Assembly: GCA_965208675.1 (NCBI GenBank)
Contig: OZ242351.1
Coordinates: 2,624,001-2,688,000, forward strand
Direction: 5' to 3'
DNA from: Candidatus Poribacteria bacterium
GTDB lineage: Bacteria; Poribacteria; WGA-4E; PCPOR2b
DNA: 64,000 nt
Below are positions 13,981-22,836 of this stretch, piece after piece (position 1 is the first letter of the stretch; each line of letters opens with the position of its first letter). The notes beneath the pieces were generated by a model that was not told the origin of the DNA, made no database searches, and was given only the letters and a program-made list of their open reading frames with translations. Position numbers and translations under genes: made by a program.

Positions 13981-16220
13981 ATGATTGAAGTAGCGCAGTT
14001 TAAGGCAAGGCTCATAGAATTCGACGCACTACGTGAAAATGACGAGATAGAAGAAAAGACCGTTGAACATATCGCTCCACAATACAATGATCGGTGGCCT
14101 CCCCATTTACACCCATCTGTCCGAAATGCCCTTAACAGGACCGGCATCGATCGGCTCTATAAACATCAGGCTAAGGCGATTGATTTGTCTCTCAGGGGTA
14201 CAGATATAGTTTTGGAATCGCCCACAGCGAGCGGAAAGACCTTGGCTTTTACCGCGCCGATGCTTGATTCGTTGATTCGCGACAGGAGTTCACATGCACT
14301 AATGATTTACCCTATGAAGGCGTTGGCTTACGATCAGCGCGAGCAAATTGAGCAACTTTGCAGTTTGCTCTCCATCGAATCCTTTCCTTACGATGGGGAC
14401 ACCGAACAGGAACATAGGCAGCTATTGCGAGATTCTCCACCACAGATATTATTTACCAATCCCGAATATTTGAATATGTCATTTCTAGGTTGGCGGGATA
14501 AGTGGAAAGACTTTCTGCACAAGTTGCGGTATGTAGTGATTGACGAAATTCATGAATATCACGGTTTTTTTGGTGGCAATATGGCGCTATTGCTCCGGCG
14601 CTTTTTTCTGCATCTGAAGCGCATTGGCACGAACCCTCGAGTGTTTTTGTCGACCGCGACCTGCGCGAATGCCGCCGAACATGCTAAGAATCTCACCGGA
14701 CGCGATGTCATTGCCGTATCTGCTCGGGATGTCTTGCGTCCTAAGCGACATTATTTTTTCGTGAATCCTTCCATTCCCGATCACAGATACAGGGATATTC
14801 TTCGCCTTAGGGTTGTAAATGCGGCACTAGCAGTTCTCGCCCAAGGGTTGCGCGTGCTTGTTTTTTGCCCAACCAAGAGATTCCTTGAGCAAGCCTACAG
14901 CGATTGCGCGCGCTTAGCTGAGGAAAATGGATTCGCTCGTGACAGAATTGTGCCTTTTCATGCAGATCTGATGTCCGAAGAACGGCAGAGAATACAGCAG
15001 GGCATAAGAGACGGTGAAATTGACGTTGTATTCACGACGAACGCCCTAGAATTAGGTCTGGACATCGGTGGTTTAGACGGCGTGATTTTGGCGGGGTTTC
15101 CGCCTAGAATTACGTCCGCTTGGCAGCAAATTGGACGCGCTGGACGAAAATGGGACAAGGACGCTTTTGTGCTGTTCTACGCCATGAATGATCCGATTGA
15201 CCACTTCTACGTGGGCAACTTGCACGCCTTTCTGACGAAGCCTTTTGATGAATTAGTGGTTGACACTGGCAACGAAGGTCTGATTCAAAATCATCTCAAT
15301 TCGCTAGTCAACGAATCGGGCAAAGACCTAAACGAATCGGATAAGACTATACTGGGCGACCCTTTTTTCAAGCGGCGAAAAACTTCACTGGCATGGTACC
15401 AAAGGGTTTCAAGCCACAGCAAATACTAAAAATGCGTGGGGGATTTGACAAACCGGTCGAGTTAAGATTTCGGAATGAGGTTTTGGGTCAAATTTCGGAA
15501 GTGCGTCGGTTCCGCGAAGCCTATATTGGTGCTATCTTCACATTCTTCGGCCAGCAATACCGCGTACATTCGCATTTGGCAGGTGCCATTGAACTAGAGA
15601 GGGCGGAACTTAATCACAGAACTGACCCAAAATTTTACACGGTACTCTATCAAAAGGAAGTTTTCGATGGGTTTGGTTATGGTGACTTTGAAATAATCTA
15701 CGGAACGCTTGACTTAATTATGAATTTCACAGGTTACAGTGAGGTTAACGAGCACACTGGCGAAGCAGTTGGTCAATTTGGTAATGGAGGATCAGCATAC
15801 TCCAAAGCCAACCTACACGGTTTCTGGATTAATTTCCCGCCCAGTGAAACCACTTCTGGCGGAATTGGCGCCTTAGAACACATGATTCGTGTGGGCGCTA
15901 TGTTTGTCATTCCGGCAGATCCATTTGACACTAGTACCTACTCAAGAGGCTCTGAAGAACCTGCTACTTTTTACTATGAAAACTATCCCACCGGAATTGG
16001 CATAGCCAAAAAACTGTTTGAAGTGTGGTCCAGCGCCTTGAAAAAAGGCATTGAGATTGCGGAAGACTGTAATTGCCGATTAGGGTGTCCCAATTGCATT
16101 CAACCAGCAAAATCATATAAAATAAGCAATACCGAGATTGACAAGGGACGCGGGGTTGAATTGGCGGAGACCCTTTTTGCAGCAACAGAAAAGGGGGAAG
16201 ATCGAAGATTCCAAACGTAG
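13981..16220 (+). pseudogene. DEAD/DEAH helicase with C-terminal DUF1998 zinc domain (MrfA/YprA/Hrq1 type), split by a -1 frameshift near 15363-15369
   Basis: The N-terminal ORF has PTASGKT, YPMKAL, DEIH, STAT, TNALELGLDIG and QQIGRAGR. The second ORF (15393-16220) has ALEH, FYYENYPTGIG and CNCRLGCPNC. Joined length is ~746 aa from ATG 13981 (GAGG RBS). Confidence 0.82.
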
Positions 16221-16343
16221 AACGTGTCCACCGGTGACAAGACGGAAAGACAAAGCCCTCTTAAAACACGTAAGACCATGTCGAATAACCAATGCGCAGT
16301 TTTTGTAGGGTGGGTTGAACGGCGTTAACGAACCAACGCTTGT

Positions 16344-16892
16344 ATGCCGTTTGCACTACGAGTTTTTTTTGCGGTCGCTAGCAGTATCGGTATTTGGCTT
16401 TACGACACGGCGACCCGTCAAGAAGTTGCCTTGCTCACAGGGCATTCGAGCCTGGTCGAAAGCGTAGCGTATAGTCCGTATGGCCAGACACTCGCCAGCG
16501 GGAGTTGGGACGGCACCGTGTTGGTGTGGGAAGTTGCGTCTGCAATCGGAATTGGGGTGGAACCGTCGGGAAGTCTCTTAACTACGTTGGGAAACATCAA
16601 ACGGACAGCGCTGCTGCAAAATTATCCGAACCCGTTTAACCCCGAAACCTGGATACCGTATCAGTTGGCAAAGGATGCACTTGTAACCTTGACCATCTAT
16701 GACCAGAGCGGTCATATCGTCCGCACGCTCGACATTGGACGCCAACTACCGGGAGTTTACCGAGACAAAGCACGCGCAGCGTATTGGGATGGCCGCAACC
16801 AAAACGGAGAACCTGTCACAAGCGGCATATATTACTATCAACTCGGTGCGAGCGATTACATTGCATTACGGCGGATGGTAATTGTCAAGTAA
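16344..16892 (+). pseudogene. Collapsed WD40-repeat protein remnant with C-terminal FlgD-like secretion/sorting-type tail
   Basis: Only about one WD40 repeat (GHSSLVESVAYSPYGQTLASGSWDGTVLVWE), then LLQNYPNPFNPETWIPYQL...AAYWDGRN. There is no clear RBS and the start lies just after a REP-like sequence. Confidence 0.6.
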
Positions 16893-17067
16893 CGAAAGTA
16901 TGGCAGGTAATTGCACCATTGGCTTCAAAAACGTTGATAAAACTCTCGGTTTGACCAATTGAATGACAGGTTAGGTGAACTGCGGTCGGATATTGCGTAA
17001 TTGGATTAAGATTACAAGTTCGGAAAGAAGCATTCCAATAACAGTTCGTTAGAATAGAGGAGATACC

Positions 17068-18231
17068 ATGATTTGTTACAGCACAATCCGTGCAGCCGTC
17101 ACAAGCGTAGTTGTATTTGCCCTGATTACGACCACAATGGGTTGCAGCGGGGAGGAAGATTCCCGTCAAAAAGAGCAAAAAAATTTAATGGCAGACGTTC
17201 GTGGGGGACAACCGGTTTACATCAGAGACCGCCAACTCCTCTCGCTAGTAAGGCAAGCGGTAGGCACAGGGGCGGAGTTCGTAACCGATAAGCAGATGGC
17301 GATGGTTCAAGAGATAATCGCAGCGCCCCATTTTACTCCTGAAGGCAACGTAAATCTATTACACCCCATCCGCGATTTAGAGGGCTTGGAGTTTGCGACA
17401 GGTCTCACACACCTAGACCTATCGGGGCACCATTTGATTGACGACATCACGCCGAACGATTGGGCACATATCACGCTGTTTAACTTTGACAACTATAACT
17501 ACTCGCCGATTGACACGCTTGCCACGATTGACATAGAAATCACATACGCAATGAACCATGTGCACCTAGTGCAAATCCCAGCCAACATTAGCGATATTGA
17601 TGACCTCACGCCGTTGGCGGGCTTAAAAAATCTAAAACACCTATCCCTAACCGTACAGCACGCTTCTGAAGGAATCAAGCCGTTGGCGGGCTTGTCCAGC
17701 CTAGAAACACTACGCCTATCGGGCAGCCGTGATATTGATGATTTCACGCCGTTGGCGGGCTTAAAAAATCTGAAACACCTATACCTAGACGACTGTCGTA
17801 TTCGGGATTGGGATGAAAATGCAATCGCGCCGTTGGCGGGTTTAACCAATTTAGAAACCCTGCATCTAAACCACAATACTATTTATGACATCACGCCGTT
17901 GGCAGGATTAACCAAACTGAGATACCTAGACCTAAGCCAGTGTGGGTTACAAGACATCACGCCGTTGGCGGGATTGACCAACCTAGAATACCTAGATGTA
18001 CGCAGCGATCGGATTGATGATCTCATGCCGTTGGCGGGCTTAACAAATCTAAGACACTTATACCTAGGTGGTGGAAACTCAAACAGAAGTCGTATTGATG
18101 ACCTCACGCCGTTAGCAAGATTGACCAACTTAGAAAAACTATCCCTATACATTAAGGATACTGTAGACGCTTTGTCACTCTGTGCGCTTAAGACGACAGC
18201 TATTTCCGGTGTAGAACTCGACTGTAAATGA
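17068..18231 (+). CDS. Leucine-rich repeat (internalin-like) lipoprotein
   Basis: Signal peptide with MGC lipobox-like site and GAGGAG RBS. About 8 repeats of I.DLTPLAGLTNL..L.L. Confidence 0.88.
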   Translation: MICYSTIRAAVTSVVVFALITTTMGCSGEEDSRQKEQKNLMADVRGGQPVYIRDRQLLSLVRQAVGTGAEFVTDKQMAMVQEIIAAPHFTPEGNVNLLHPIRDLEGLEFATGLTHLDLSGHHLIDDITPNDWAHITLFNFDNYNYSPIDTLATIDIEITYAMNHVHLVQIPANISDIDDLTPLAGLKNLKHLSLTVQHASEGIKPLAGLSSLETLRLSGSRDIDDFTPLAGLKNLKHLYLDDCRIRDWDENAIAPLAGLTNLETLHLNHNTIYDITPLAGLTKLRYLDLSQCGLQDITPLAGLTNLEYLDVRSDRIDDLMPLAGLTNLRHLYLGGGNSNRSRIDDLTPLARLTNLEKLSLYIKDTVDALSLCALKTTAISGVELDCK

Positions 18232-18567
18232 TGAAAGGCAGCCGTTTAGCCTTCGATTGGAACTTACAGGCCGCGTGTCCATGCGGGCATCGCCCCATTT
18301 TTGTTTGTCGGCGAGAAGGGAAGGGTTTACGTTCTTACGATTCAGAGTTGGTGGAATGTTTGGACCCCGAATAAATATTTAAGCCCTAGGAAGATTCCTA
18401 CCGAAGGGCGCAAACAGTAGATAATTCGCCGCAGGGCAATTTAGTGGAGGATTATCCGAGTTTTTAACAGGCAGGGTACCTAACGGCATGCGAACCGCCG
18501 TTTTTTACTTGACACATAAATCCAAGTTATGATACCCTTTAGCAAATTGCAGCGAAAGGCAAAGCTA

Positions 18568-18669
18568 ATGATATTTATGACGTTCCTCCTCCATTCCGAT
18601 ACGGCAACACACAACTGGCATTGGTGGCATTCAAACTGGAGTGGGAGGAGTATGCCTTTGCTGAAGTAG
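18568..18669 (+). CDS. His/Trp-rich attenuator leader peptide (33 aa), MIFMTFLLHSDTATHNWHWWHSNWSGRSMPLLK
   Basis: Read manually. It has 4 His and 4 Trp codons, 7 of them within 10 codons, a GAAAGG RBS, and a terminator and hisI-trpE-trpG downstream. An alternative in-frame ATG lies at 18577. Confidence 0.85.
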   Translation: MIFMTFLLHSDTATHNWHWWHSNWSGRSMPLLK

Positions 18670-18693
18670 ATTTCGCATTCATTTGATAGTTTT

Positions 18694-18732
18694 AAGCCGT
18701 AGGCATACACCACGTTGTCTACGGCTTTTTTT
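18694..18732 (+). terminator. Attenuator (intrinsic terminator) of the hisI-trpEG leader
   Basis: 12-bp stem AAGCCGTAGGCA / TGTCTACGGCTT (one G-U pair) running into 7 T. Its 5' arm overlaps the antiterminator pairing GTATGCCT (18650-57) / AGGCATAC (18701-08). Confidence 0.88.
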
Positions 18733-18759
18733 ATGCCAACTGTTAGGAGGAAAATCACG

Positions 18760-19143
18760 ATGCAAATGCTCGACGAACTCAAATTCGATTCAAACGGACT
18801 AATCCCGGCAATCATACAAGATTACGAGAACAACGACGTACTGATGATGGGTTACATGAACCGCGAAGCGGTGCAGCGAACGCTTGAATCAGGGCGCGTC
18901 ACGTTCTGGAGCCGCTCCCGCCAGAAATACTGGGTAAAGGGGGAGACTTCAGGGCACACCCAAGATGTGCGCTCGCTCGCTTTCGATTGCGATGCAGATA
19001 CGCTTCTCATCAAGGTCGTGCAGAAAGGCGGGGCATGCCACGAAGGGTATCGCTCGTGTTTTTTCCGGGAAGTCTCCCCCAACGGCAATTCGGCACGCAT
19101 CGTTGGTACAAAAGTTTTTGACCCGGGCGCAGTTTATTCGTAA
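18760..19143 (+). CDS. hisI: Phosphoribosyl-AMP cyclohydrolase
   Basis: [34 protein letters not shown] and [19 protein letters not shown] before ATG 18760. Confidence 0.96.
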
Positions 19144-19221
19144 CCGTGTGGTTGCGGTCTGATGACCGCAACCAATGCCGTCATTTGACGGGGCGCCCAC
19201 AGTTAGCAAGGAGACTTCTCA

Positions 19222-20706
19222 ATGTATCATCCCACTTCGGAAGATTTTCGGAAAAAAGCGCAACTCGGCAATTTGATTCCCGTTTACAAATCCATATTGG
19301 CGGACATGGAGACCCCGGTATCCGCATTTTACAAGATTGGCGGCGATGAGTACGCCTTTCTTCTGGAAAGCGTCGAAGGCGGCGAAAATCTCGCCCGGTA
19401 CTCCTTCCTCGGCGCGAATCCATCCATCCTGTTTCAGAGTAAGGGGGATCAGGTTAAAATCACAGAAATGCGAACCGGTAAAATCGTCGCGTGTGAATCA
19501 AGGGACGGGCTTACTCAGCTTGAAGCACTGATGAATCGCTACCAGCCGGTGCAGGTCGAAGGACTGCCCCATTTCCACGGCGGGGTTGTGGGCTACCTCA
19601 GTTATGACATCGTGCGGTTAGTCGAAGAATTACCCGATTGCACCGAGGATGACCGGGATTTACCCGATTGCTATTTCATGACCGCCGATACGCTATTGGT
19701 CTTCGACCATGTGAACCACCGGATTAAGGTCATCGCCAACGCGCATATTGATGGCGATATTGACGCAGCGTATGCAGATGCAATAAATCGAATTGAAGTT
19801 TTGATTGCGAAACTCAAGCGTCCGCTTCGCATGAATCCCGGCAAGAAAACGCCAGAGGAAAACACCCAAACGCAGATTACGTCGAATTTCACGAAAGCAG
19901 GCTACGAATCTGTCGTCCTTCGCGCAAAGGAGTACGTCGCTGCGGGGGACATCATTCAAGTCGTTCCGTCACAACGGATTAGCCGCCCAATTTCCGTCGA
20001 TGCCTTTGAAATCTATCGTGCGCTCCGCACCGTCAATCCCTCGCCCTATATGTACTATCTCAAACTCGCCGGCCTCCAGATCGTTGGGGCTTCGCCGGAG
20101 ATGATGGTGCGTGTAGAGAACGGACGCGCAGAGACCCGCCCAATCGCCGGAACGAGACCGCGCGGACGTTCCCCCGCGGAAGACGCTGCACTCGCTGAAG
20201 AGTTGCTCGCCGATCCAAAGGAACGGGCGGAACATGTGATGCTCGTTGATCTAGGGCGAAACGACCTCGGCCGTGTCTGCGAATACCACACGGTTCGTGT
20301 GAGCGAGATGATGGTAATCGAGCGCTATTCGCATGTCATGCACATCGCCTCGCACGTCGAAGGGCAACTGCGCGAGGGACAGACCGCTTTTGATGTCATT
20401 CGCGCCTGTCTCCCCGCCGGAACGCTGTCGGGCGCACCGAAGATTCGGGCGATGGAGATTATTGAGGAACTCGAGCCGACGCGGCGGGGACCTTACGGTG
20501 GCGCGGTCGGTTACTTCAGTTTCTCCGGCAGCGCAGACACGGCGATTACAATTCGTACCCTCGTCGTCGTGGACGGTGTTGCCTACATCCAGGCTGGCGC
20601 CGGCATCGTTGCGGACTCTGTACCCGAATTCGAATTCGAGGAAACGCTGAACAAGGCGCAGGCTGGATTGAGAGCCATTGAATTTGCGGAGGCGGGATTG
20701 GAATAA
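19222..20706 (+). CDS. trpE: Anthranilate synthase component I
   Basis: LLESVEGGE, NPSPYMYY, GASPE, PIAGTRPRG, AEHVMLVDLGRND and PAGTLSGAPKIRAM. Confidence 0.96.
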   Translation: MYHPTSEDFRKKAQLGNLIPVYKSILADMETPVSAFYKIGGDEYAFLLESVEGGENLARYSFLGANPSILFQSKGDQVKITEMRTGKIVACESRDGLTQLEALMNRYQPVQVEGLPHFHGGVVGYLSYDIVRLVEELPDCTEDDRDLPDCYFMTADTLLVFDHVNHRIKVIANAHIDGDIDAAYADAINRIEVLIAKLKRPLRMNPGKKTPEENTQTQITSNFTKAGYESVVLRAKEYVAAGDIIQVVPSQRISRPISVDAFEIYRALRTVNPSPYMYYLKLAGLQIVGASPEMMVRVENGRAETRPIAGTRPRGRSPAEDAALAEELLADPKERAEHVMLVDLGRNDLGRVCEYHTVRVSEMMVIERYSHVMHIASHVEGQLREGQTAFDVIRACLPAGTLSGAPKIRAMEIIEELEPTRRGPYGGAVGYFSFSGSADTAITIRTLVVVDGVAYIQAGAGIVADSVPEFEFEETLNKAQAGLRAIEFAEAGLE

Positions 20707-20769
20707 GCGTTTTTTAAATCAGAAAAAAGATGTGAGAAAGTACAGACATACTTAATTAAGGAAAAAACT

Positions 20770-21333
20770 ATGGTACTCATGATTGACAACTACGACTCAT
20801 TCACTTACAACCTCGTCCAATATCTCGGTGAACTGGGCGCGAATCTTGTTGTCCACCGCAACGACAAAATCACAATTGAACAGGTTGAAGACCTCGCACC
20901 TGAGAAGATTGTAATTTCCCCCGGCCCCTGCACGCCGCGTGAGGCAGGCATCTCCTGCGAGTTGATTCGTCGCTTTGCCGGCCGTTTGCCGCTGCTCGGC
21001 GTCTGCTTGGGGCACCAGTGCATCGGCGAAGCCTTCGGCGGCGATGTTGTCCGGGCAGAGCGGCTGATGCACGGGAAGACATCTATGATTCACCACGACG
21101 GCGAGGAAATTTTCGACGAACTGGAAAACCCGTTTGAGGCGACGCGCTACCATTCGCTCATCGTGAAAAAGGAGACGCTGCCAGACTGTCTTAAACTCAC
21201 GGCATGGACAGATCAAGACGAAATTATGGGAATCCGGCACAAGGAACATTCTATCTGGGGTGTGCAATTTCATCCGGAATCAATTCTGACACACGCCGGT
21301 AAACCGCTATTGCAAAATTTCTTGCAAATTTAA
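20770..21333 (+). CDS. trpG: Anthranilate synthase component II (glutamine amidotransferase; TrpG/PabA)
   Basis: [30 protein letters not shown] and QFHPESI. Confidence 0.94.
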
Positions 21334-21432
21334 CATGAAGCCTCTGAATGTTTCTGGATTTATCACCGTTTTTTTGGTATAGTATCATATACCTTTGTTA
21401 CCTAATCTTCCATTCAGTGACGGATTATACAG

Positions 21433-22836
21433 ATGCCGGACCTTAGCAACATTGATGAACACCTCGTTCAGAAATTATGGAATGATCGACGCTTTTTTGA
21501 CTTTGAGTTGAAGGCGACCGACGGACGTACTTTGCAAGTGCTGAAAACCGGGCAGTGGAATCATAACGAGGGACCCGACTTCGCTGGAGCCGAAATTCTA
21601 GTCAATGGGAAGTTGTTAACGGGTGATATTGAGATTCACGTTTCTTCATCCAATTGGTACGATCACAAGCACCATCTCGACTCAAAATATAACCGCGCCG
21701 TACTGCATGTAGTTTTTTGGGATGACGATATCAATCTGCGTACTCGGACTCAAAACGGTAATCGGATTCCGACGTTAGAACTGTCTCACCGGCTCGACAC
21801 ACCTTTGGTGGAACTAATCGACGAATACAAGAATCCGAAAGCGAATCGGCTGGAATGCCGAATAACAGGCAGAAGGCTGAAGATTGAACCGCTCAAGTCG
21901 GTTTTCGATCAACTCGGACAAGAGCGGCTCATTGCACATAAAGAGGCGATGCAAGCGCAGCGCGTCACGGTCGATTTTGAGCAGTTGCTCTACAGGGGAA
22001 TCATGGACGCGCTGGGGTACAAATTAAACCGCGAATCCTTTGGGGAATTGGCGTATCGAGTGCCCATCTCGCAATTGATGGGAAAGTCGAATGAGGAGAT
22101 TCAAGCTATACTGCTCGGGGTTGCGGGCTTGCTACCTTCGCAATGCGATCTGCTCTCGCCCTGCGAAGCTAATGAACCGTTTATTTCTCAGTTAGAAACG
22201 CTGTGGGCTGCTTCTGCGCAATACGAGAATTCCAATCGAATGTCGGGGCATGTATGGCGGTTCGGAAACACGCGGCCGCCGAACTTCCCCACTCGCCGCA
22301 TCGCTGCGATGGCTACGCTGATTAGTTCCCGAACGGATAGCTTGTTGGCGGAGTTCGTTTCCCACATCGAAGCCGCAGCAACGGCAAACAAAAAGGGTAT
22401 GCAACGAATACGCCGTAAGTTGCTCGAGTTATTGATGCTCCCCGCCGCCGGTTACTGGGCAAACCACTCTCGTTTTGGAAAAGGAATTGCAAAAAAGGGA
22501 ACAGTATTTATAGGAGAAGCTCGCGCTTCTAAAATCATCATTGATAAATTATTGCCGCTCGCGCTTGTATGGGCGGAAGAGTCGCAGAGTTCCAAATTGT
22601 CTGACGCGGTTCAAAAACTCTACGACCATCATCCAAAGATACAGAATGACCCTATCGCTGATAAGATTGCCGCCCGAATCTTCACCGAACAGCAGCCAAT
22701 TCAGAGCATCTCTCCCTCCGCAAAAAAGCAACAGGGCGCAATCTATCTCGACAAAAACTTCTGTGAAAGCCAACTCTGCGAACTCTGTCCAATCCTCAAC
22801 AGCGGCGCGGTGGACGAAGACGCCGCCAATCCTTAA
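21433..22836 (+). CDS. DUF2851 family protein
   Basis: G.WN...GPDF, GDIEIH, W..HKH..D..YN..VLHVV, RPPNFPTRRIA and C-terminal C-x4-C-xx-C. Confidence 0.85.
   Translation: MPDLSNIDEHLVQKLWNDRRFFDFELKATDGRTLQVLKTGQWNHNEGPDFAGAEILVNGKLLTGDIEIHVSSSNWYDHKHHLDSKYNRAVLHVVFWDDDINLRTRTQNGNRIPTLELSHRLDTPLVELIDEYKNPKANRLECRITGRRLKIEPLKSVFDQLGQERLIAHKEAMQAQRVTVDFEQLLYRGIMDALGYKLNRESFGELAYRVPISQLMGKSNEEIQAILLGVAGLLPSQCDLLSPCEANEPFISQLETLWAASAQYENSNRMSGHVWRFGNTRPPNFPTRRIAAMATLISSRTDSLLAEFVSHIEAAATANKKGMQRIRRKLLELLMLPAAGYWANHSRFGKGIAKKGTVFIGEARASKIIIDKLLPLALVWAEESQSSKLSDAVQKLYDHHPKIQNDPIADKIAARIFTEQQPIQSISPSAKKQQGAIYLDKNFCESQLCELCPILNSGAVDEDAANP

Follow-up and report, generated by a model that had tools for sequence, protein, structure and literature searches.

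We analyzed a stretch of 64,000 nucleotides (nt) from the genome of a Candidatus Poribacteria bacterium (GenBank assembly GCA_965208675.1, contig OZ242351.1, positions 2,624,001 to 2,688,000 of the forward strand), referred to below as the window, in which a short open reading frame (ORF) with interleaved His and Trp codons precedes a gene of histidine biosynthesis, hisI, and two genes of tryptophan biosynthesis, trpE and trpG. The genome carrying the window is complete (4.89 Mb), and the hisI gene at 18760..19143 is its sole copy. An earlier reading of the same DNA, made from the letters alone (hereafter the sequence-only reading), had proposed that one His enzyme and two Trp enzymes are encoded downstream of a dual His/Trp attenuator; domain matches identify the three genes as hisI, trpE and trpG, which are probably co-transcribed as a three-gene operon. 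The features of the locus are as follows.

18509..18538, forward strand: promoter-like region, predicted from a -35 hexamer that matches the consensus perfectly (18509-14) and an extended -10-like element (18530-38)
18550..18561, forward strand: region 1, outer 5' arm, covering the Shine-Dalgarno region (18555-59), with its partner at 18653-63 (duplex and minimum-free-energy, MFE, folds)
18555-59, forward strand: Shine-Dalgarno-like element of the leader ORF
18568..18669, forward strand: leader ORF, 33 codons followed by a TAG stop (18667), with 4 His and 4 Trp
18586..18597, forward strand: region 1, inner 5' arm (5' arm of helix 1 of the sequence-only reading), from minimum-energy folds
18610..18639, forward strand: control codons, an interleaved run at codons 15-24, inside the loop of the 1:2 structure
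18638..18650, forward strand: region 2a, inner 3' arm of helix 1, from minimum-energy folds
18647..18663, forward strand: region 2b, 5' arm of the antiterminator and 3' arm of the outer 1:2 helix, within the last seven codons of the leader
18694..18711, forward strand: region 3, 5' arm of the terminator and 3' arm of the antiterminator
18694..18732, forward strand: intrinsic terminator (3:4), hairpin 18694-18727 with seven T at 18726-32
18745-50, forward strand: Shine-Dalgarno element of hisI itself
18760..19143, forward strand: hisI, phosphoribosyl-AMP cyclohydrolase (PRA-CH, 127 amino acids, aa; domain match E 3e-36)
19222..20706, forward strand: trpE, anthranilate synthase component I (494 aa; chorismate-binding and anthranilate synthase N-terminal domains)
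20770..21333, forward strand: trpG, glutamine amidotransferase component II (187 aa; GATase domain)

The promoter-like region implies a putative transcript start at about 18545; a consensus promoter scan gives an overlapping, weaker pair at 18504-18533 (9/12 matches), and relatives have a -35 consensus hexamer, a 17-nt spacer and a good -10 element at the same place. The leader ORF, with its interleaved 4 His and 4 Trp codons, is present just as the sequence-only reading described it; the control codons follow the order His, Trp, His, Trp, Trp, His at codons 15 and 17-21, with an extra Trp at codon 24, and the whole element is small, about 190 nt. The terminator, whose 5' arm had been predicted to be common to an antiterminator, folds into a hairpin of -18.9 kcal/mol (z -6.5; 0/200 shuffled sequences fold equally well), which a simple terminator scan overlooked because the loop exceeds the 8-nt limit of the scan. 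The antiterminator is indeed a perfect 8-bp pairing of 18650-57 with 18701-08, which the fold lengthens to 18647-62/18695-18711, and helix 1 (18586-97/18638-50) appears in the minimum-energy folds. Thus, all three helices that had been thought to compete are present, but helix 1 only abuts the antiterminator, with a single shared base, and the real competitor is the outer helix 18550-61/18653-63, which stacks outside helix 1; together, these two helices make up the MFE fold of 18546-18666 (-34.2 kcal/mol).

The gene order and the leader are widespread among Poribacteria. In 40 relatives and the window's genome, hisI is directly followed by trpE in 30 of the 30 loci fetched, and 29 of the 30 have, upstream of hisI, an ORF containing a Trp/His run and, after it, a terminator that hardly varies. 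A covariance model of the leader, built from 29 regions and searched over 151 genomes of the order (four families), matches 28/28 genomes of family f1, 38/104 of f2, 11/11 of f3 and 3/7 of f4; the weak f2 matches sit directly upstream of hisI, and in the model-negative f2 genomes the leader is present by inspection in 3/3 fetched. The collection contains 176 genomes of the phylum, with TrpE in 172 and HisI in 171. Automatic leader detection (74 loci, 31 genera) sought ORFs of 12-45 codons ending just 5' of a terminator-like hairpin; the leader ORF was chosen on Trp content alone, so that the choice was blind to His, and ATG was preferred. In 52 of the 67 hisI-trpE loci, this detection returned a leader whose core has two or more Trp, each time just 5' of a terminator. 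These 52 leaders span 17 genera and 8 family-level groups, are 25-42 codons long and all start with ATG, as preferred in the selection; three stop codons are in use, and indels at the Trp codons are multiples of three.

Compensatory changes, proposed by the sequence-only reading as a check on the helices, support both the terminator and the antiterminator. Among 29 representatives of 10 families, 96% of the terminator cells are paired and 6 of the 12 pairs have changed on both sides, with a covariation score of 0.38 vs 0.20 for shuffles (reached by 0/500 shuffles). Region 2 pairs with the 5' arm of the terminator in 55 leaders (median duplex energy -15.9 kcal/mol); in these, the median distance from the end of the antiterminator 5' arm to the leader stop is 3 nt, and that from the last control codon to the start of the arm is 15 nt. 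Both spacings fit the classical model, in which region 2 is covered by a ribosome at the stop but stays free when the ribosome stalls at the control codons. Three columns of the shared arm covary with both partners, terminator and antiterminator: one has A-U in 26 sequences vs G-C in 3, in both helices, and a second behaves likewise (G in 27, A in 2); at two further terminator pairs, G-C gives way to U-A in all nine second-family sequences. For a terminator, the arm shows unusual conservation of its RNA sequence, which its two alternative partners explain. Antiterminator pairs were counted by mapping per-sequence duplex predictions onto the terminator columns because the alignment misplaced region 2 by a few columns in the second family and in one distant genus; one alignment with reverse-strand partial matches to the palindromic terminator was excluded from the counts. 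The leader start and early codons pair with region 2 in most genera (median -26.8 kcal/mol; z of -2 or lower in 12 of 23 genus representatives), and we read this 1:2 element as a device that would impose termination by default and block late ribosome loading. The comparison with relatives thus strongly suggests a switch. A leader ORF with a ribosome-binding site, a cluster of control codons, a terminator and a mutually exclusive antiterminator with a maskable 5' arm were all found, and the element is very probably a genuine ribosome-mediated transcription attenuator. The label of translational attenuator given to it earlier does not strictly apply, since translation drives the mechanism but transcription is what it attenuates.

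Lack of conservation of the His codons in orthologous leaders had been named beforehand as an outcome that would refute dual control; the His codons prove to be conserved. At least one His lies within three codons of the Trp run in 51 of the 52 hisI-trpE leaders, and at least two in 46. The two synonymous codons both occur (CAT 142 and CAC 45 times overall; 42 and 6 times at the central position). The number of His codons is maintained across lineages even as their positions shift: in some genera two stand ahead of the run, in others one lies between the Trps or one or two follow it; in one genus three His stand before the run, and in another three surround a single Trp. Between families, conservation does not extend to the N-terminal half of the peptide.

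The leaders of operons that lack hisI bear on the role of these codons. In two genera (L180, L181), a homologous leader with four Trp and zero His in the whole peptide lies directly 5' of trpE, and the hisI-less leaders of genus g10 (L076, L075 and L077) have 0, 1 and 1 His, respectively; all share region 2 and the terminator design with the hisI-type leaders. In these lineages, hisI is a divergent copy elsewhere in the genome, with 37-48% identity to that of the window and without a leader. A TrpE tree was built from 30 Poribacteria rows plus 7 outgroup rows, with each genus represented once except g10 (twice) and all other genomes left out (IQ-TREE quick search, LG+G4, SH-aLRT support only). 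In this tree, the two His-free genera and one leaderless genus group together as sister to the rest of the Poribacteria (support 100 and 98), and g10 falls inside the His+Trp clade, as the sister of g12+g13 (support 95; 95-100 for the nesting); the placements therefore yield two independent contrasts between His codons and hisI. In the nested contrast, the direction is loss of hisI together with loss of His codons. Genus g22 was considered as another hisI-less case and set aside: a contig break accounts for it, and a short contig carries its hisI together with a His+Trp leader. When HisI and TrpE coordinates were compared by eye across the phylum, no further lineage was found in which hisI has departed from the operon; the apparent exceptions are contig breaks, insertions between hisI and trpE, or a second, unregulated trpE copy.

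The most likely interpretation is that the mixed His/Trp leader and the competing hairpins switch hisI-trpE-trpG on when either amino acid is short. Transcription would begin near 18545. With no translating ribosome, region 1 (the leader start and early codons) would pair with region 2, regions 3 and 4 would form the terminator and transcription would stop at the T run 18726-32; during smooth translation to the stop codon at 18667, the ribosome would cover region 2 and the terminator would form too. When charged tRNA-His or tRNA-Trp is scarce, the ribosome would stall at the His/Trp codons (18610-30) and keep 1:2 open, so that the free region 2 could pair with region 3, no terminator would form and the operon would be transcribed. 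Ribosome stalling and a response to each amino acid would be expected under this scheme, and a link to phosphoribosyl pyrophosphate (PRPP), the substrate common to the two pathways in the sequence-only reading, is conceivable. The interpretation put forward in that reading is supported. On balance, the evidence favors an attenuator of the trpL/hisL kind controlling hisI-trpE-trpG, with control codons for two amino acids, His and Trp, from different pathways; the His codons, judging from their distribution among the leaders, would probably provide a second sensory input. For the fuller reading of a two-input sensor, in which shortage of either charged tRNA opens the mixed operon, the His codons evolve with the presence or loss of hisI, and leaderless hisI-trpE adjacency elsewhere hints at a functional coupling of His and Trp, we estimate a probability slightly above even, roughly 0.55.

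Several observations weigh against this interpretation. With respect to structure, the single-sequence z-scores of the 1:2 and antiterminator (2:3) pairings in the window, helix 1 included, are weak and unremarkable (-1.2 to -1.4), so that it is the comparison with relatives that carries the case; the 1:2 pairing is no better than in shuffles in 6 of the 23 genus representatives, and its arms are not at homologous positions between genera. With respect to distribution, 15 of the 67 hisI-trpE loci fall outside the 52, with individual causes that vary. The leader of L022 is degenerate, three leaders in g12 are weak, and no leader was detected in five hisI-trpE loci of g13, g17 and g20; the hisI-trpE genera with a weak or no detected leader are g12, g13, g16, g17 and g20, the g16 locus covering only 208 nt upstream of hisI, so that the leader region may fall outside it. 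The 15 also include L024 (G011), where an in-frame insertion breaks the His/Trp run and the terminator is intact, two leaders of g25 with a single Trp and three His, a g27 locus with a terminator without a T run and a leader visible by inspection, and two loci cut by contig or locus ends. With respect to the His codons, their association with hisI rests on two evolutionary contrasts, related genomes not being independent samples. The genus of L186 has hisI in the operon yet four Trp and only one His; that of L006 has zero core His, with Tyr instead and three His upstream; and one His codon is kept in 2 of 3 genomes of the hisI-less g10. RNAalifold proposes a 5-bp pairing of the central His codon, at the Trp-His junction, with region 2; this pairing, which compensatory changes neither support nor refute, might be what keeps the codon in place. 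Finally, it is physiologically unusual for His supply to regulate only hisI and not the first enzyme of the His pathway.

The main rival to dual sensing is a Trp-only attenuator, in which the His codons persist by ancestry, RNA constraint or basal tuning of ribosome speed and hisI is a passenger in a trp operon. The L186 genus, the His codon retained in g10 and the pairing of the Trp-His junction with region 2 all speak for it, as do the greater constancy of Trp (3-4 in nearly every leader, with His sometimes replaced by Tyr, Asn, Asp, Cys or Arg) and the plain Trp leader of the ancestral-looking sister clade. However, the pairing with region 2 accounts only for the central His and not for the one to three flanking His of shifting position and kept number; it lacks compensatory change and is weakened in the second family, which keeps the His codon nevertheless. 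The synonymous variation of the His codons and the complete absence of His in the two genera whose leaders have no hisI downstream also argue against control by Trp alone, which we consider a serious but rather unlikely explanation.

A nascent arrest peptide or a trans-acting small protein, in the manner of TnaC or peTrpL, would have the His/Trp run kept for the function of the peptide. The core run and the C-terminal residues are conserved across families, and leader peptides with functions in trans have been reported (peTrpL). The C-terminal conservation, however, coincides with RNA region 2, which covaries with the terminator arm, and the unconserved N-terminal half, the varying positions and numbers of His and the range of lengths from 25 to 42 codons make a peptide function very improbable. 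A switch between terminator and antiterminator controlled by a protein or ligand (TRAP-like, T-box-like or riboswitch-like), with an incidental ORF, is the least probable explanation: the unusual conservation of the terminator arm that might favor it is explained by the two alternative partners, there is no relevant match to an Rfam family with E up to 10, conservation extends to the ORF with its ATG and frame and to the spacing between region 2 and the stop, for which three different codons are used, and indels at the Trp codons come in threes.

Some departures from the common arrangement were observed in individual genomes. In L015 (G023), the unit of leader and terminator is duplicated in tandem, about 40-400 nt upstream of hisI, and the covariance model matches both copies, which are likely to be two attenuators in series before hisI. 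In L171, L173 and L174 (g17), there is no leader upstream of hisI, and the region 5' of hisI in L171 contains arrays of GC-rich palindromic repeat units that are REP-like. Insertions of 0.7-1.6 kb separate hisI from trpE in L198 (G174) and L073 (G134), the latter carrying an extra ORF of 153 aa; in both loci the leader remains 5' of hisI. The genome G086 contains a second trpE copy (L197) with ~68% identity to that of the window, located directly after a WD40-repeat ORF; it was considered as a contrast and found uninformative, its upstream region having no hisI, leader or terminator. In genus g11 (L078-L081; genomes G047, G049, G038 and G029), a paralog of the attenuator, which shares its region 2 and terminator design and has a leader of 26 codons with 3-4 His and one Trp, precedes a gene for a secreted protein of ~600 aa containing DUF5916 and CBM9-like domains, that is, not a gene of amino-acid biosynthesis.

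Leader-peptide attenuators of several kinds have been described. In E. coli trpL, a leader ORF with Trp codons, the alternative pairings 1:2, 2:3 and 3:4 and a terminator precede the first gene; hisL contains seven consecutive His codons, senses charged tRNA-His and controls the whole his operon. The leaders of thrL (Thr and Ile), ilvL and ivbL (Leu, Val and Ile) respond to more than one amino acid, any shortage relieving termination; these amino acids belong to one pathway family, and each of them is served by the enzymes under control. The Poribacteria leader resembles E. coli trpL in its short ORF with Trp codons, the 1:2, 2:3 and 3:4 alternatives, a stop placed to mask region 2 and an intrinsic terminator, but differs in that the control codons occupy the 1:2 loop instead of region 1, the ribosome-binding site of the leader itself falls within region 1, His is interleaved with Trp, and the operon consists of hisI and only trpE and trpG of the trp genes. 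As in hisL, His codons in the leader ORF are the proposed sensors of charged tRNA-His, whereas here 2-4 of them are mixed with Trp and a single his gene is controlled. As in thrL, ilvL and ivbL, one leader ORF has control codons for more than one amino acid; unlike in these, the amino acids come from separate pathways and the mix of codons mirrors the mixed operon.

Membership in known families was rejected. A permissive Rfam cmscan of 17500-22000 with E up to 10 returned no match to Trp_leader (RF00513, the attenuator trpL of the E. coli trp operon), His_leader (RF00514, the enterobacterial hisL attenuator of the his operon) or T-box, and nothing relevant among riboswitch families; the three matches obtained were unrelated and at chance level (osmY, snoZ40 and H19_2). 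Accordingly, neither E. coli trpL nor hisL has a detectable counterpart here in terms of Rfam models, and the former shows no sequence similarity to the Poribacteria leader. To our knowledge, and as far as the literature search showed, described leader-peptide attenuators sense a single amino acid or one pathway family. The sequence-only reading knew of no His+Trp leader; in the full-text literature, with supplements and most subscription journals lying outside the search, we likewise found no His+Trp leader, hisI-trpE operon or Poribacteria attenuator, a negative that includes passages of PMC4833913, PMC2395257 and PMC1183508. With the trpE(G) attenuator of Sinorhizobium meliloti (trpL, rnTrpL; PMC6614838), only the anthranilate synthase operon is preceded by a leader, and the other trp genes are located elsewhere without one, as in the Poribacteria genome. 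Unlike the Poribacteria leader, that of S. meliloti has Trp codons only and is associated with no his gene, and the two are unrelated in sequence.

Adjacency of hisI and trpE extends beyond Poribacteria: among 80 loci examined, it was found in 23 from other phyla (Omnitrophota, Verrucomicrobiota, Planctomycetota and others; L092-L161). None of these 23 loci has a comparable leader; 20 are without a candidate ORF, and the other three have only ORFs initiated by GTG or TTG, in which two Trp stand apart and His does not cluster. Linkage of the two genes is therefore older than the leader or more widespread, and the leaderless adjacency hints at a conserved linkage of His and Trp genes. If the dual-sensor interpretation holds, a codon mix that mirrors the operon content and changes with it would indicate that leader sensors are readily reprogrammed in evolution, and the locus would be a natural example of cross-pathway (His/Trp) control. 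As far as the literature search showed, this is the first cis-regulatory RNA element for Poribacteria, an uncultivated phylum, and it suggests that Trp and His synthesis is adjusted to supply.

Within the genome carrying the window, the attenuator appears to be a singular case. The remaining his and trp genes (trpA, trpC, trpD, hisG, two hisA/F genes and a PRA-PH gene) are dispersed over the chromosome, and no His- or Trp-rich leader was found upstream of trpA, trpC, trpD, hisG, hisA/F or hisE. The leader covariance model gives a single match in this genome, and a genome-wide scan for short ORFs rich in one residue just 5' of terminator-like hairpins, which is crude and noisy, yielded no convincing second leader-peptide attenuator; its output also contained a small number of short ORFs rich in Trp. 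A 309-aa frame outside the window (G000:C1:4125762-4126691) has a PRA-PH (hisE) match and a weak HisG-like one and may be a fused or unusual his gene. The genes adjacent to the operon (window positions 15393-18231 and 21433-22836) encode an MrfA zinc-binding-domain protein, a WD40 protein that carries a FlgD-Ig/CHU_C type IX secretion tail, a protein with leucine-rich repeats and, 3' of trpG, a DUF2851 protein.

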